From a virus (taxonomy: Duplodnaviria > Caudoviricetes), in the IMG/VR virus record IMGVR_UViG_3300005438_000120, positions 33,467-97,466 of that record: 64,000 nt of DNA; one strand, written 5' to 3'. Below are positions 2,413-59,300 of this stretch, in pieces. The notes under the pieces are model-generated. The model was not told the origin of the DNA. It was given only the letters and a program-made list of their open reading frames with translations, and made no database searches. The first letter of the stretch is position 1. Each line of letters opens with the position of its first letter. The position numbers and the translations under genes are program-made.

Positions 2413-2660
2413 GGCTGCGCCCCTTCGGTACTCGCCGTGCGCGTATCGGCGATTACGCCCCACACTTCGATATCGCTCACGTCTTTCCGGCGTGCGCACT
2501 CGAAGTAGCTGGCGCACCTCAGCACGTCACCGTGGATGACGAAATCCGAATCACTCAGCGAGGCGTGACCACATTCCGAACAGAACATTGGTACCGCGTA
2601 GAACTTGCGGAGCGCGGCGGTCAGGCGTGAGGAGTTGAGAGCGAATTGTGCGTAGGTCAT
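2409..2660 (-). CDS. Small zinc-finger protein (resembles 8031..8240)
   Basis: CSECG...RCASYFECARR. Confidence 0.55.
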   Translation of the reverse strand: MTYAQFALNSSRLTAALRKFYAVPMFCSECGHASLSDSDFVIHGDVLRCASYFECARRKDVSDIEVWGVIADTRTASTEGAQP

Positions 2661-2668
2661 CGGGTGTC

Positions 2669-3250
2669 CTATTCCGGCGAACTCGTTTGCTGCGCTTCGC
2701 TGATAGCCGCGTCAACCGCGTCGCGGATTGCTTCCTTCACGGCCCCGGCGATCTCTTCGTCAGTCGGCGCGTCCGCTCCGGCATCTTTCGCTTTGGTGCG
2801 CAGGTCTGTCGCTACCGCATCCTCGTCAACCTCTTCAACTTCGATAGCGTCCAACTCATCCGCCCACGCTTCGCATGCATCGCGGCGTTCTTCAAGCAGT
2901 TGGCCGGTGTCGCCCTGCCGCAATCCTTCCGGCATGTTGTCGAACTTCTCGCCCTGTTCCTCGCCAAGCGCGCGAGCCTCCGACGCGATATCCTCCAGAT
3001 CGGATTTCAGGTCGTCGGTAGTCTCGTAGTTTTCAGCCTTCATGTCGGCGAGGCGATCTTCTAAATCGTAGACTGCCGCATAGAACTCGCTCTGCGTCGT
3101 CTGTGATCGTCTCGGGTACGTTTTCGAAACGCGCTTCGCGCCGCCGCGACCACCCACCATGAACTTCCACCAAAAGTACGGATCGCCGACTTTGATTCCG
3201 GCAGACGGGATCGCCTTGCGTGCGTGCTTAACCTCGTGAACTTTTGCCAT
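2669..3250 (-). CDS. Hypothetical protein, basic N-terminus and acidic helical C-terminus
   Basis: 193-aa ORF directly downstream of a leaderless promoter. Confidence 0.65.
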   Translation of the reverse strand: MAKVHEVKHARKAIPSAGIKVGDPYFWWKFMVGGRGGAKRVSKTYPRRSQTTQSEFYAAVYDLEDRLADMKAENYETTDDLKSDLEDIASEARALGEEQGEKFDNMPEGLRQGDTGQLLEERRDACEAWADELDAIEVEEVDEDAVATDLRTKAKDAGADAPTDEEIAGAVKEAIRDAVDAAISEAQQTSSPE

Positions 3251-3354
3251 GCCGACAATCTAGCATCGCCCGATTCGGAATGCAAGGAAATTCTTTGCAC
3301 GATCATAAAGAAACAGTTTGACATTCGGATTCGGAGAGCCTACCGTGTCTGTCG
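3251..3354. promoter_or_regulatory. Divergent sigma70-type promoters with operator-like motifs
   Basis: Minus: TTGCAT(3285-3280)-N17-TAGATT-N6-ATG. Plus: TTGACA(3318)-N17-TACCGT-N8-ATG. GATTCGGA occurs in both spacers. Confidence 0.7.
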
Positions 3355-3639
3355 ATGAACAAGCCGAAACGAGTTCCGAAGAGTAGCGACGATCCGATTC
3401 GATGGATGATCGACCATGATGTTTCGGCGGCAACGATGGCCGAAGACTGGGGTGTCACGTCATCGTATGTCTACATCCTTCAGAAGTTCGCGAACATGCC
3501 GAGCTGGAAGTTGGCGGCCAAGATGGCTCGAACGTTCGGATGGGAAATCGTTGGCGTGATGGTGCTGTGGGCTGCGCGTGTAACGCCGACACGCGAACAG
3601 GCGAAGCGGAAGCGCGGCGCGAAACGGAGGTCGTCGTGA
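3355..3639 (+). CDS. Cro/XRE-like helix-turn-helix regulator
   Basis: SAATMAEDWGVTSSYVYIL...PSWKLAAKMA HTH pattern; first gene after divergent promoter. Confidence 0.6.
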   Translation: MNKPKRVPKSSDDPIRWMIDHDVSAATMAEDWGVTSSYVYILQKFANMPSWKLAAKMARTFGWEIVGVMVLWAARVTPTREQAKRKRGAKRRSS

Positions 3640-4892
3640 GGGGAGCTATCCTTTGCGCATACAAAACGGAACTTGATCCGACTTGCAAACAAGTCACGGC
3701 GCTCCTTCGTCACGCTGGAGCCGCGCGTTGGGTGTTCAATTGGGGGCTTGCGCGCAAGCAGGAGAGCTATGCCGCGTGGGTTGCTGACGGGAAGTGTGGC
3801 AAGTGCGTAGTGCCGTCATCGGTTGATCTCAGCCGTGAACTGACCGTCCTCAAAAAGACGCCGCACGGGGGCGGTGGCGTTCCGTGGCTGTGCGAGGTTT
3901 CGAGTCGCGCGCAGGGGCACGCACTCCGGAACCTCGACCGCGCCTACTCCGACTTCTTTCGGCGATGCAAGGATGGATCGAAGCGCAAAGGCTTCCCGAA
4001 ATTCAAATCACGGAAACGCGGAATTGGTAATTTTACTCTCCACGAGAGCACTTTGCGTGCAACAGAAACGCACATTCGTTTGCCGAGACTCGGCTCGATC
4101 AAACTGAAAGAGCGCGGCTACCTGCCGAGTAACAGCGTTCACGTTCTGAGCGCGACCATCTCCGAAAAAGCCGGTCGTTGGTTTGTTTCGCTGAACGTTG
4201 AGCAGGAGTGTGAGTTGACGCCTGCGCCGAAACGTTTGCTCGGCGTCGATGTCGGCATCAAGAGTCTCGCCGTGACAAGCGACGGAGAATCGTTCGCGAA
4301 TCCGAAAGCGCTCCGAGCGGCAGAGCAGCGTGTGCGGCTAGCCCAAAAATCCGTCAGCCGAAAGAAGAAAGGATCAACTAACCGCCGCAAGGCCGTACGC
4401 CGTCTCGCGCGTCAACATTACCGAGTCTCATGCGTTCGAAAAGATGCGATCCACAAGGCAACGTCTGCGATAACCAAGCAGGCGTCAGTCATTGTGATCG
4501 AATCTTTGAACGTGGCGGGAATGATGAAGAATCATCATCTCGCTCGCGCAATCAGCGATGTCGGGATGTCTGAATTCCACCGGCAGTTGAGGTACAAAAC
4601 AGCGTGGCGCGGCGGAACGGTAATCGAAGCGGATCGCTTCTTTCCGAGTAGCAAGATGTGCTCACAATGCGGCAACGTGAAGGAGTTGTTGTCGCTTTCG
4701 GAGCGCATCTACATTTGCGAAGCGTGCGGCCTGACGATCGACCGCGATCTGAACGCATCAATCAACTTGAAGAACTTGGCGGGTAGTTTGCCCGTGTCAG
4801 CCTGTCGCCCCGGAAGCGCTGGCCGTGGCCGTAAGGTTGCGGCGAAACTTTTGGTTGGGCAGGAACCGAGAAGGGAGGATCAGCGTGCCTGA
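3636..4892 (+). CDS. tnpB: RNA-guided endonuclease TnpB (IS607-type)
   Basis: AYKTELDP...AGAARWVFNWGL, GFPKFKS, RuvC-I GVDVG, RuvC-II IESL, Zn finger CSQC/CEAC, RuvC-III DRDLNASINL; GTG at 3636 overlaps upstream TGA. Confidence 0.93.
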   Translation: MRGAILCAYKTELDPTCKQVTALLRHAGAARWVFNWGLARKQESYAAWVADGKCGKCVVPSSVDLSRELTVLKKTPHGGGGVPWLCEVSSRAQGHALRNLDRAYSDFFRRCKDGSKRKGFPKFKSRKRGIGNFTLHESTLRATETHIRLPRLGSIKLKERGYLPSNSVHVLSATISEKAGRWFVSLNVEQECELTPAPKRLLGVDVGIKSLAVTSDGESFANPKALRAAEQRVRLAQKSVSRKKKGSTNRRKAVRRLARQHYRVSCVRKDAIHKATSAITKQASVIVIESLNVAGMMKNHHLARAISDVGMSEFHRQLRYKTAWRGGTVIEADRFFPSSKMCSQCGNVKELLSLSERIYICEACGLTIDRDLNASINLKNLAGSLPVSACRPGSAGRGRKVAAKLLVGQEPRREDQRA

Positions 4893-4934
4893 TCTTGTCC
4901 GCTTCGGAGAACGGATTCCTGATGCGGAGTTCGC
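4775..4934 (+). ncRNA. Predicted TnpB omegaRNA: scaffold ending GGAGAACGG at 4914, guide ~4915-4934
   Basis: Hairpin 4779-4795 (GTT loop), GCCTG...CAGG pairing, terminal hairpin 4866-4907, IS607-like right-end AGAACGG; 5' boundary approximate. Confidence 0.65.
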
Positions 4935-5010
4935 GGCGCTAGCAACGGTTAACGACGCGACCGAATACCTGATGCTCAAAACCGGCTATGCGGAAAGAGC
5001 GGATGCGTGA
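4885..5010 (+). pseudogene. C-terminal remnant of an acyl carrier protein-like gene, started from within the IS right end
   Basis: IPDAEFAALATVNDATEYL resembles the ACP C-terminus (IPDExAEKITTVxDAIDYI); no DSL serine motif; GGAGG+GTG lie in the omegaRNA hairpin. Confidence 0.5.
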
Positions 5011-5620
5011 AACCGTTTCGCGCCCGCTTGATAGCTGCCGCCGTTGACGCACTGCGCGACGGCAGAGACGTGATCGTTCGCGCCCATTCATCGCGCGAGA
5101 CGGCGCAACTTCGAAACGCGATTCTGCGCGAAGCAGGAGCGAATGCTATCGAGTGCTGGAACATGGAAGGAGCGGATGAGGACGCGCCGATTGTTCGCGC
5201 GCTGCCGTTCGGTTGCGTCCCGGCTGGGGTTGACCGGCTCATGCTGCCGCCAGTCGTTTTGTATGATCTGACGACTTGCTTCGAGCGCGGCAACGTCCGT
5301 GAGCCTGCAATTCGGAGCGTGTTCGCGTGACCGACTTCGAGGCAGTCATCCGCAATCTCCCGAAGGCGCAACGCCGCGCACTCGATAACCTTTCATGCGG
5401 CCTGTCTGCCGGAGCTAGTCAGCGGACGTTGGCGGCGCTAGCGGATCGCGGTCTGATTGTTGGTCAGGAGCGAACGTCACGAGACCGTTTCGGAGTCATG
5501 ACGTGGATCGAATATGAAGTTCCGATACCTGTTCACATGGCATGGTGCGCGGTCTGCGCCGAAGAATGGGATGCGCTCGCGCCGGAAGAGCGAGCCGCGA
5601 TGGAGGCACCTGACGCATGA
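5007..5620 (+). CDS. Two coupled hypothetical proteins (5007..5330; 5327..5620, winged-helix-like)
   Basis: GTGA/ATGA overlaps; RTLAALADRGLI in the second. Confidence 0.55.
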
Positions 5621-6857: not shown

Positions 6858-7280
6858 GCGATGCGCGCCTCGGGAAACCTTCCGCGCGATTCGACAAACG
6901 CCATTATCTCAAACTCGGCGATCTTGACCATGGCGCGGAAACACGGCACGCAGAAGTTGCGTACGCTGACTACGGATCGCGGCGTTAACTGTTGCCGCGT
7001 TGCGATCACGTCACCTTCCGCTCCGCAGGCGTGGCAGAGCGAGTCGGTTTCGATTTCGGCACTGACGCTCATGCGCTCGCCTTCATAACTCGCACTACCG
7101 CCTCATCAAATTGATCCTGCGTCGTCACGATTTCGCATATTACGCAGCCGATCTTCGAACCTTCCATAAACGTGACCGGCGAGTCAACGTAAAAAGCAAT
7201 GAACCGCTGAAGATGACGGCATAGCTCCTTTGGGTCGGAGTCGCCGACGATTGCGGCCAGAAGCCGCTCCTCCGCCGCGT

Positions 7281-7865
7281 TCATGGCGTTGCCTGCTGAG
7301 CCGGAAACCGAAACGACGCGAAGTTGCCGCCTTTCGCCTTGTGCTGCCGGAGCGCGGCGGTAACGACGAATCCGCGTTTCGTAATCGTGACTTTCTTTCC
7401 GAGATCGGGTTCGCCGCGCGTCGCGAGAATGCCCGCCGCAACTAAATCCTGCACGCAATCCCAATCGCAATGCCGATCAGCGAAGCGGCCATCGGCGAGC
7501 CGCGTCGGGTACCTGTTGTCGCCGTCGATCTTCACGCGCCCGAACAGATTCTCTTTCGCCGGAGCTGATTGCGCGATGCGCCAACAGCGGCGGCATGTCC
7601 GCATGCGCGGATCGCCCTTGATCCGGAACTCGCGGTGGTCAACGATGCGCATTTCGATATACGCGAGAGTTGACCAGTGATCTTTGCCGAACAACTCAAT
7701 CGGCACGTGCGCATCAGCGAATTCGGACGTGTGCCCCGCGCCGCATCCGCATGACGGCAGCAATTTCTCGCCGCCGCCGTCCTCCAGCGGATTGCCGTGA
7801 ACGCAACGGGGGAGCGGGTAATTCGTTTCGGCCCATTCGATCGCGAGTGCGAGTGCGTCACTCAT
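7281..7865 (-). CDS. Conserved hypothetical phage protein
   Basis: GKDHWSTLAYIE...YPTRL...HCDWDC; coupled to flanking small ORFs 6854..7072 and 7069..7284. Confidence 0.6.
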   Translation of the reverse strand: MSDALALAIEWAETNYPLPRCVHGNPLEDGGGEKLLPSCGCGAGHTSEFADAHVPIELFGKDHWSTLAYIEMRIVDHREFRIKGDPRMRTCRRCWRIAQSAPAKENLFGRVKIDGDNRYPTRLADGRFADRHCDWDCVQDLVAAGILATRGEPDLGKKVTITKRGFVVTAALRQHKAKGGNFASFRFPAQQATP

Positions 7866-56336: not shown

Positions 56337-59300
56337 TCAGGTGTCCGATATTCCGATTGTCGCTTGGGTAGCGTCGTTTGGTTCATCCCGCGCGTCGGCG
56401 CGCATCGCCTCAGTAAAAATCCAAACTTCGTCCCCCGCGTCGGCATGGTCAATATCGCCGTGCGTGGACGGATCGTAGGTTACGCGCTCCACGTAGCCGT
56501 ATTTCGCGAGCAACGCGCACCACTCCTCGCTCTCTTCTTTTTCGAAGAAACTGCGATCGTTCAGAATGTGACGGAGGACTGCGCGCCCGAACTTCGCGCG
56601 CGGTGACGAATTTGTTCCGAACAGATCGTGAGCACAGTTTTCTTTTTCGCTCGCCATTACGGTCGCTCCTCAACCTCGAATTTGTGGTATGCCACAACCC
56701 ATCCGTCGTATCCGCGCGCCCGTGATTCGGAATCCGCGAAGTCGTCAAGCAACTTCTGCGACTCGCTATCCTGAAGCGGCCACGGATCGGAGACCATCAG
56801 GAGATCAAGCAAGGCGCGGAAGGTCGCATCGTCCATGCCGTGTTTAGCGACGCATCGCACCGTTACGCGATGAGCGTTGCTGAGCATGCCCGCGAGCACA
56901 GACGCGCCTATGTCGAAAACTTCATCGCCACGCACGAACAGCTCTAGCTCGCCGTCTTTCGGAAAATGCGCACCGTAGTTGACGTTTGAGGTTAGATACT
57001 CAGAATCCATCTTTCATTACCCTTCGGCGCGCTGTGCGCCTTCGCCGATTGCCGGAAACGCATCCGCGAGCGCGTCTCGCAGAGAGACGCCGCCGCGCGT
57101 CCAATTTGCCAGCATGAACGAGCGAACGGGGTCATCGGAATCGAATGCGACCTCGCTCACGACATTCTCTGGTTGAATCTTCAGCTTCGTCAGCATCTCC
57201 TGAAGATGTTGCTGCGCTCCCGCGAAATCGTCCGCTCCGGTCGTGTGGTGCATCTTTGATTTCATCCGCAGAACTTCGAGCGTTTCAATATCGCGGATCG
57301 GTCCCGGCATCGGATGCTCTTCCGTGAATACAACGTGGTAGCGATCATTCGGCAGCCGCAAGATGTAAACGATATCCGATGGCCCGCAAAAGCAAGTGCC
57401 GTCTCCGTTGTCGATCAACATCGTCATCTCCTCGCGTCGCGCCATGCGCCGCAGTTTGTTCGCTGAGCAAGCCCAAGATTCCGCAGCCGACGCAACGCGC
57501 CGACGACAGCCTGCGGAGTGAGTAGAACCGCAACACGTACCGGCAGCCTGCGCCGAAGTTCGCGACCGATCATCGCCGAGCGCATACCTTCAGTTTTGAA
57601 CACGCCGCGTGACTCGCGCAGAACCATCAGCACGGCAGCCGCTACCGGGTCAAGAGTTGCGTGGAGGGGACGCGGAGCGAAGCAGAAAAACTGACGTGGC
57701 GCGTTCATCATTCGGTCCCGTTGAATGCGTCCGGCGGTTCCGGCAACGGCATCCAATGCGTGAGGAAGTTCTCTTTGTGCCCGAACTTGTTGCGCCACGC
57801 ACCCTTCCCCGGCGCGTTCGGATGGAAGATTTCGTAACGAACAGTGCGAGGATGTGCGCCGATATCCGAACGGTCCGCGTAATTGTGGCAGGCAAGAATT
57901 GGCGTGCCGTCGCGCGGGGCAATTTCAATAGGTCGCCACCCGGAAGCTGCTTGTGGGTGTTTCACGATTCTTCTTCCGTAATCGGATCGCCGATGTAGCG
58001 CGGGATGTCGCGATCGAAACTCCAGCCGCAAGCGTCGCTCGCGCACTCGAATGTTTCCGTTGCGCCGAATTCCGTGCGCGTAGTATCCGATCCGCACTTC
58101 GGGCATGCGTCAACGAAGTAGTTCAACGACTGCGCGAACGGCGCGAGTTCGTCTCGGTTCCTCATAGCGGCTCGTACCCCTCGCGCCCCGTATGACGCTT
58201 CACGAACTCCAAAACTTCGCGCCCGAAGTCAGTCGGGATCGCGCCGTGACCGTAGCATTCGTGGCAGTGATCGGAAAGGTGACGGCGGTCCTTGCCTTTG
58301 CCGCTCCAATGTTCAGCGACTGCGCATCCTTGCCGAGAAAGGCAACCGAATCCAGCGTCGGCGGGAACGCAAAACTTGACCCGCGTTCTGCCGCCGTAAT
58401 CGGCGACACAGCAACAGGAGCATGGTTCTTCGAGCTGGATATCAAACGTCGGCACGGCTCACCTCATCTAGCGGCTGGTACTCCTGCTCGAAATCTTCGC
58501 GGCTCATCGCCCACGATTGTTTCTGTTCGTTTGTCACGACGACGCAGCCATCCCAAACGCGCTGCACGTTGCCGCATCCTCCCGGATTGACGCCGAGATA
58601 ACCGGCAGGATCGCCGCCGTACGAAGCTGGAGTCCAGTACCGCTCAACCGGCCCACCTTCGCCCGTTGCTTCTGTCCAAATGAACGCGGTGAAGTTGCCG
58701 CGTAGACGATAGAGCGGCGCGAGTTCGTTCGTTTTAGGTTTCGGCTCCGCCATGAACTGACCGCGGCTTCCGCTAACCGGCCTCGTAGTCTCCCAATAGA
58801 ACCCCAGCTCGTCGCCGATTTCGCGCCACGCGACACGGGCATCTTCCGCCAACGCGATGCGATGAAACTGCTCGTCGGAAAGTTGATACATTTTCCTGGG
58901 CATCACTTCCGGCTCCGCTTCTTCAGTGACGCGCGCAAGGCTTCAAGCAATTCAGGATTAGTCGGCTGCTCTAGCGGCTCGCTCGCTTCAGTCTCGCCTG
59001 CCGCGTCTACCCACGGCGGCAGAGAAGTGCGGACTTCGATCTCGCGCACGCTCCCACCCCAAACCCTGTTCGCGTGAGAATCGGCTAACGCCTTGTCCGA
59101 ATACGCGATACCGGAGCAAACATCGATCGCGTCACCGTCCGTCTCGGCGAATTCGAAAACAGCGAACACCTTCGAGGTCGCATCGCTCATGACTCGTTAC
59201 CTTCCCGCGCCGCTTCGTCGCGAGCGGATACGCAGTTTTCATCCTTGCAGCAGTCGGCGCACACGTCCGCGTTGCCGTCGATGCACTTCGCTTTGCCGCC

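Follow-up and report, generated by a model that had tools for sequence, protein, structure and literature searches.

A 64,000-nt window (bases 33467-97466) of the 97-kb linear IMG/VR virus record IMGVR_UViG_3300005438_000120, a record estimated to be 71% complete, carries a tnpB gene and an overlapping omegaRNA scaffold as a compact cassette (3642-4914, + strand) that lacks the transposase gene tnpA. Its right boundary is firm and its left boundary uncertain within 3631-3648; judged from its sequence, the cassette is real, well bounded and apparently functional. We consider it probable that this is a phage-adapted RNA-guided homing or competition nuclease, directed against cassette-free alleles of related phages. 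The role against related phages that an earlier note, made from the letters of this DNA, had predicted agrees with this explanation. Nothing points to the host target that the same note had offered as an option; like that of every TnpB element, this guide is simply 3' flank sequence.

The tnpB gene (3636-4892, +) encodes 418 residues with the RuvC and zinc-finger regions intact and takes its GTG start from flank sequence. Pfam recognizes HTH_OrfB_IS605 (E = 2.9e-13), OrfB_IS605 (E = 2.6e-25) and Cas12f1-like_TNB (E = 2.8e-21) domains; the NCBIfam guided_TnpB model (NF040570) scores the protein at 289 bits, against a cut-off of 100, and with the IS200- and IS607-specific NCBIfam models it reaches similar scores, 308 and 295 bits, neither of which attains the strict cut-off of its model. 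Its best natural match among solved structures is ISDra2 TnpB (PDB 8H1J/8EXA; E = 1e-64). In the alignment with that protein the RuvC D-E-D triad is kept (the D of GVDVGIK, the E of IVIESLN and the D of DRDLNA) and both pairs of the zinc-finger CxxC...CxxC align, confirming the earlier statement that all three acidic residues and the zinc finger are present. Domain set, triad, CxxC pairs and an omegaRNA that ends at the element boundary are all those of a TnpB in the sense of NF040570, and we predict that the protein is a catalytically intact RNA-guided nuclease.

The right end of the cassette, GGAGAACGG (4906-4914), is conserved in about 25 relatives, whose DNA diverges immediately after it; two copies of one element at different sites (contigs L011 and L012) likewise part just after GGAGAACGG. 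The omegaRNA scaffold (4773-4914, +) overlaps the 3' end of tnpB, has GATCAG-cgtgc-CTGATC as its last hairpin and ends with this same sequence. An RNAalifold consensus of 14 relatives contains 36 pairs, 21 of them with compensatory changes; 95.6% of the cells at these pairs are paired, and their covariation is 0.556, compared with 0.245 in column shuffles (0 of 500 reached 0.556) and 0.09-0.17 for slid partners. A covariance model built from 15 relatives finds a single match in the window, at 4773-4914 with 132 bits, and an Rfam scan of 3000-5600 at E values up to 10 returned no omegaRNA or RAGATH-18, only a chance 18-nt match. The comparison with covariance models that the earlier note proposed is therefore positive for a model made from relatives and negative for Rfam families, and its placing of an omegaRNA-like 3' end at 4914 is upheld by the conserved right end, the covariation and the covariance model alike. 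Because the scaffold ends at 4914, the guide would start at 4915, as had been claimed, a position fixed by the right end shared among the relatives. The predicted guide template, ATTCCTGATGCGGAGTTCGC (4915-4934, +), consists of the first bases of the 3' flank, of which the omegaRNA would carry the first 16-20 as guide. With up to 4 mismatches allowed, the guide has no second match anywhere in the record, which extends what had been reported for the window, and the search of phage genomes that had been suggested gave no exact match in IMG/VR.

Several relatives at 57-69% identity lie directly 3' of a serine recombinase gene, tnpA (163-187 aa, 186 in most), whose stop overlaps the tnpB start (tnpA-bearing relatives include L012, L013, L122 and L125), and this layout recurs in the nearest outgroup of the clade to which the window gene belongs; the lineage is therefore IS607-type and not IS605-type. 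In the 97-kb record there is no Resolvase match and no tblastn match to a relative's TnpA that would indicate a serine recombinase, no PF01797 match that would indicate the Y1 transposase of IS200/IS605 elements, and no second tnpB. The earlier observation that neither transposase accompanies tnpB accordingly extends to the full record. DNA homology with the tnpA-bearing relatives and with the two closest phage copies (L009 and L010, described below) starts at about 3644-3649 and stops at 4914; an nhmmer profile of the tnpA 3' and tnpB 5' regions aligns only from 3649, and no left-end homology was detected with it. In the relatives the left end reads GG followed by GTKAYMAMCAG, a recombinase-binding sequence. 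The window has no room for such an end, as the earlier note had also seen, because the upstream gene overlaps tnpB. That gene, which encodes a helix-turn-helix (HTH) protein, was considered as a remnant of tnpA and rejected, since BLASTP of its product against IS607 TnpA gave nothing. Of the hallmarks of an autonomous IS607 element the cassette has the GG right end and lacks the upstream tnpA and the left end, and these comparisons indicate that it is a TnpB-family member of IS607 ancestry, without being an autonomous IS607 itself.

The tnpB start ATG of L012 aligns with ATC in the window and in L010 and with ATT in L009. In tnpA-bearing relatives the 5 bases before the left end are AGAGG, GGAGG, TGAGG or CAAGG, and published target-adjacent motifs (TAMs) of IS607 elements are G-rich (PMC10690162, PMC13565253). 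The candidate TAM-like motif of the window, presumed to be the end of the left flank, is TGAGG at 3637-3641 (+), with GGAGG at 3626-3630 as the alternative. With TGAGG, the uninterrupted locus would read GTG-AGG-ATT-CCT... and form a 33-codon open reading frame (ORF) that overlaps the HTH stop with its start and the next gene with its stop, which fits the style of the operon. With GGAGG, the flank ORF would form a 31-residue tail of the HTH protein, which fits less well with the 81-106-aa length of most HTH homologues.

Two observations on relatives concern the same right end. A JGI metagenome contig (L048) has a tnpB-like gene at 2501-3730, its TnpB 52% identical to that of the window, and downstream of it, at L048:3802-4170, the scaffold's final 28 nt (to GGAGAACGG) occur 5 times over, with a sixth, degenerate copy and with unique 34-36-nt spacers separating the repeats. 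This arrangement is a CRISPR-like array within an IS607-type clade and perhaps represents an intermediate between TnpB and Cas12. In several relatives an ATG occurs 2-5 nt after GGAGAACGG (L012:1993-2010, L042:1583-1600, L122:2022-2040, L124:2705-2720), and in L122 and L124 this ATG is the called start of the next gene; the GGAG of the element end may act there as a ribosome-binding site in place of the gene's own, which would have served as the G-rich target.

Among 5.8 billion proteins searched, the two closest TnpBs have 78-79% identity and come from a 124-kb contig (L009) and a 19-kb contig (L010); many at 60-69% follow. Both cassettes are solo and stand in same-strand phage operons, each behind a gene unrelated to the window's HTH gene. 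Proteins flanking the L010 cassette are 60-90% identical to the products of genes at 87-96 kb of the window phage's record, which makes the L010 phage a close relative; the L009 phage is a more distant one. The three phage TnpBs form one clade in a quick tree (Shimodaira-Hasegawa-like approximate likelihood ratio test, SH-aLRT, 100), with the tnpA-bearing elements outside it. Two expectations of the earlier note fail here. The cassette is not immobile on an evolutionary scale, because its clade occupies three different sites in related phages, and synteny of the HTH gene with tnpB is not conserved, so that this pairing appears to be local to the window phage. The test for decay of tnpB that it had also proposed favours it: the pairwise ratio of non-synonymous to synonymous substitution rates (dN/dS) for the window tnpB against its L009 and L010 counterparts is 0.10-0.12 at dS 1.2-1.4, in place of the neutral decay that the same comparison could have revealed. 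In all three phage copies an NTGA overlap couples tnpB to the same-strand gene upstream; in the window the tnpB start at 3636 overlaps, as GTGA, the TGA stop of the 94-aa ORF at 3355-3639, just as had been described. From these features we judge the cassette to be conserved and solo throughout the clade, and tnpB to be translationally coupled into a phage operon.

These data also bear on the view that the cassette is an inert relic, an IS607 copy in the phage that lost tnpA and its left end and persists as a passenger read by operon read-through. We regard this as unlikely. It would account for a single copy in a record with no transposase, and for the failure to find a cassette-free allele or target, and solo tnpB genes are common in genomes (PMC10691335). 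A relic would not be expected, however, to have its ORF, catalytic residues and omegaRNA pairing all intact, nor to show dN/dS of about 0.1 in a clade that is without tnpA throughout, and all three copies have kept a precise stop-start coupling after losing the start position of their relatives.

A solo TnpB 61% identical to that of the window (P0055; L014-L021, contigs of up to 485 kb) adjoins a second, convergent tnpB and lies before a BrxC/BrxD-like gene, and GenBank LR745208.1, a 485,034-bp uncultured phage, has 67% DNA identity with part of the window tnpB.

The main support for homing comes from comparing the window phage with L010. A three-way alignment places the unoccupied counterpart of the L010 insertion, that is, an empty site for the sister cassette, at 59183-59210 (-) of the window, where a 67-aa zinc-finger gene meets the gene that follows it. 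The 16-mer guide derived from the L010 flank matches the window at 59204-59189 (-) with 2 mismatches. As far as sequence can tell, this difference between carrier and non-carrier at 59183-59210 is what would be expected of a homing element.

On the homing or competition reading, an IS607-family element would have been reduced to tnpB and omegaRNA and kept by a phage lineage; its tnpB borrows a start codon that lies across the HTH gene's stop. When a related phage co-infects, the TnpB-omegaRNA complex would cut that phage's cassette-free locus, in which a G-rich TAM (for instance TGAGG or GGAGG) would be followed by ATTCCTGATGCGGAG..., and repair from the carrier genome would then copy the cassette into the cut, or else the cut genome would be lost. 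The carrier would be protected because its own target copy follows the scaffold end ACGG, which is not a TAM. Such discrimination has precedent: IS607-family TnpB cuts joints in which a TAM precedes sequence matching the flank and spares its own right end through the -3 base (PMC10690162), by which the scaffold end ...CGG escapes cutting (PMC10690162; PMC13565253). The resulting behaviour would be that of a free-standing homing endonuclease gene, and spread of an IS605 element in plasmid populations independently of TnpA has been described, according to the summary of that work (PMC11870625, as summarised in PMC13565253).

Several points weigh against this reading. No cassette-free allele of the window site was found, and the guide is without an exact IMG/VR match. 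The flanking genes lack close relatives in the databases searched: blastn recovered no close phage among 50,697 phage records, IMG/VR scans gave no relatives of the 107-aa, 193-aa and 94-aa neighbour proteins, and the HTH homologues are too distant to recover a cassette-free allele because their identity is at most 40% (all representatives searched). Among sequencing runs one matched, probably that of the source rhizosphere metagenome, and no RNA run did; its contigs gave one contig only, with no junction bypassing the cassette. The left boundary, and hence the TAM, is uncertain within 3631-3648. Homing into the same site is by itself insufficient for a clade found at three sites, so that at least two relocations require another mechanism. 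Part of the purifying selection could date from before capture by phages, and expression, RNA processing and cleavage are all predictions.

One route by which a cassette might relocate is suggested, tentatively, by the flanks of the sister copies. A target of about 14-20 bp is present on both sides of the L010 cassette (L010:5965-6030 and 7236-7320) and once in the window, at 59183-59210 (-). In L010 its first copy fills the space between GCGGG and tnpB, abutting both, and there gives the zinc-finger gene back its end; its second copy immediately follows the right end. At the same two positions L009 has an 11/12 repeat. At the window cassette the best similarities for such a flanking repeat are not significant (p 0.08-0.15), and a general test for flanking repeats in other solo loci gave no signal. 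IS607 elements are described as lacking target duplications (PMC6188088; PMC13565253), and the L010 repeats possibly arose by one-sided repair after a TnpB cut, or by imprecise excision followed by reintegration. If the former, a lineage of phage OMEGA cassettes might spread and relocate without a transposase, a scenario that we think doubtful but worth setting out. Repair would copy tnpB and omegaRNA and join them to the cut end, whereby tnpA and the left end would be lost; before tnpB there would stay 12-20 bp of target as a stub, in effect a spare gene end, restoring the interrupted gene and supplying start signals for tnpB. Were this so, it would be a new way in which RNA-guided nucleases are fixed as viral genes wired into operons. 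At its end the L010 cassette also contains two copies of CGGAGAACG, 24 nt apart (L010:7241-7273). The true end of the L010 RNA is ambiguous because of this doubled right-end motif: the covariance model prefers the first copy, and length and flank homology favour the second.

A different role had been proposed in the earlier note, in which the guide is drawn from an acyl carrier protein (ACP)-like gene and a regulated nuclease is aimed at intact ACP genes of competing phages or of the host. The proposal concerns a 41-codon ORF (4885-5010, +) that links the stop of tnpB to the start of the next gene (GTGA, 5007-5010). Bases 4915-5006 have this as their sole open frame and look coding, with codon-position G+C content matching that of neighbouring genes. 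Its translation matches five NCBIfam ACP models over model residues 50-78, at best with E 5.6e-4 and 19.7 bits where the cut-off is 84, and has the ACP-like motif IPD..E.....TV.DA..Y. The cut-offs of the ACP models are 70-146 bits, however, and the ORF and its flank part score 14.6-19.7; residues 6-10 of the match (RFGER) are encoded by the element's own conserved right end and contribute about 5 of the 20 bits, leaving E 0.02 and 14.6 bits for the 31 residues encoded by flank (4915-5007). The search for a PP-binding domain (PF00550) that had been suggested found no match, either in the 41-aa ORF or in six frames of the record. No ACP N-terminal half or phosphopantetheine site occurs anywhere in the record, in any frame, and no longer homologue of the ORF was found in the protein collection. 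An ACP has four helices, some 75-90 residues and a phosphopantetheine serine in a DSL motif, of which the flank could encode 31 residues only; on this evidence an ACP-like label for the ORF is not justified. As the guide has no second match, and the guides of the sister cassettes lie in unrelated genes, we hold a nuclease aimed at ACP genes to be very improbable. The 41-codon ORF is probably the remnant or tail of a phage ORF that was interrupted by the cassette, judging from its frame, and keeps the coupling to the next gene.

Two operons of opposite direction surround the finding. The leftward operon ends at 3250 and the rightward operon starts at 3355, its genes overlapping by GTGA or ATGA; the cassette is its second gene, directly after the HTH gene, and no terminator-like site occurs within 2900-5400. 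Upstream, 3318-3357 (+) has a promoter-like design of TTGACA, 17 nt, TACCGT, 7 nt and ATG, which would give the HTH gene a leaderless or near-leaderless start. The general form TTGAC-N17-19-TANNNT-N5-8-ATG occurs 5 times in the window, at 3318, 11637 (-), 12755, 21160 and 59664 (-), against 0.11 expected. A generic sigma-70 scan rejects the design at 3318-3357 because its -10 box matches 3/6, so that the phage promoter claimed in the earlier note for the HTH gene gains from repetition of the design and not from the scan. Two of the five operons with this design host a solo tnpB cassette, one in the window phage and one in its relative L010.

The first gene of the rightward operon (3355-3639, +) encodes a 94-aa XRE/Cro-like HTH protein. 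It has no Pfam match; language-model features and an Atlas model connect it with HTH_3/XRE/CI families (score 0.93-0.94; template modelling (TM) score 0.52-0.60), and an alignment-free model of low confidence (predicted local distance difference test, pLDDT, 64) was left out of the fold search. Its homologues are 15 distant proteins of 81-183 aa (most 81-106) and one 914-aa repeat protein. Two paralogues occur in the same phage outside the window, at about 17.5-18.2 kb of the record (L002:1435-1683 (-) and L002:971-1642 (-)), one of them fused to the C-terminus of a 223-aa protein with an HNH-like CxxC...HH region. These comparisons mark the 94-aa gene as a phage gene and not as part of the element. 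The next operon gene (5007-5330, +; 107 aa) has no relatives in any database searched, its product finding only itself in large protein databases.

This position raises a further alternative, that of a domesticated, non-homing effector which uses its RNA guide to regulate the operon or attacks partly matching host or rival DNA. A fixed place just behind an early-looking promoter and an HTH gene would suit it, and prophages have domesticated relatives of TnpB into TldR repressors (bioRxiv 10.1101/2023.11.30.569447). We nevertheless think it quite unlikely: unlike TldR, this TnpB retains its nuclease residues, its guide equals the neighbouring flank, as that of mobile elements does, and neither position nor neighbours are conserved among relatives.

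Cas12 descends from TnpB, whose known natural role is to guard transposons against loss. The cassettes described here make up a whole clade of intact TnpB-omegaRNA units in phages, without a transposase and under purifying selection. Their plugging into different gene junctions of host operons is the layout expected of viral homing or competition nucleases, and reviews have called RNA-guided nucleases in the role of phage homing or competition genes theoretical (PMC13565253). The window and L010 together offer a matched filled site, empty site and guide that are directly testable, and compact TnpBs whose guide RNA has a defined end are of interest as scaffolds for genome editing.

Among characterized systems, the IS607-family CboIStron TnpB of Clostridium botulinum (PMC10690162) has the same nuclease architecture and likewise takes its guide from the 3' flank. 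In IS607-family elements generally the omegaRNA overlaps the tnpB 3' end and ends ...CGG, the target motif is G-rich and self-cutting is avoided via the -3 base (PMC10690162), features that the window cassette shares or is predicted to share; its sister elements also resemble IS607 in that the stop of the serine-recombinase tnpA overlaps the tnpB start. Unlike CboIStron and IS607, the window cassette is without tnpA, left end and intron; unlike its IS607 relatives, it has lost the native start position and borrows translation from a phage gene, and its whole clade is phage-borne and solo. ISDra2 TnpB (IS200/IS605; PDB 8H1J, 8EXA) has the same catalytic residues and zinc finger, but goes with a Y1 transposase and a TTGAT TAM, whereas relatives of the window gene have a serine recombinase and a GG end. 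TldR proteins (bioRxiv 10.1101/2023.11.30.569447) are phage-borne TnpB relatives without a transposase, as here, but have lost the RuvC catalytic residues and direct their guide against a host promoter; the window TnpB keeps all three acidic residues and a local-flank guide, which sets it apart from TldR. In the IS605 plasmid gene drive (PMC11870625), so far as its published summary goes, TnpB cuts the insertion-free copy and the element spreads without a transposase, as we predict for the window cassette; that drive differs in its plasmid replicon, its IS605 family and its retention of both element ends. The free-standing homing endonuclease genes Seg and Mob of T-even phages (PMC13565253) similarly lie between conserved phage genes without a transposase and are presumed to act on co-infecting relatives, followed by repair-mediated copying or exclusion. 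In Seg and Mob the protein reads the target and protection comes from substitutions in nearby genes, whereas in the window cassette an RNA guide would read the target and the insertion itself would protect the carrier.

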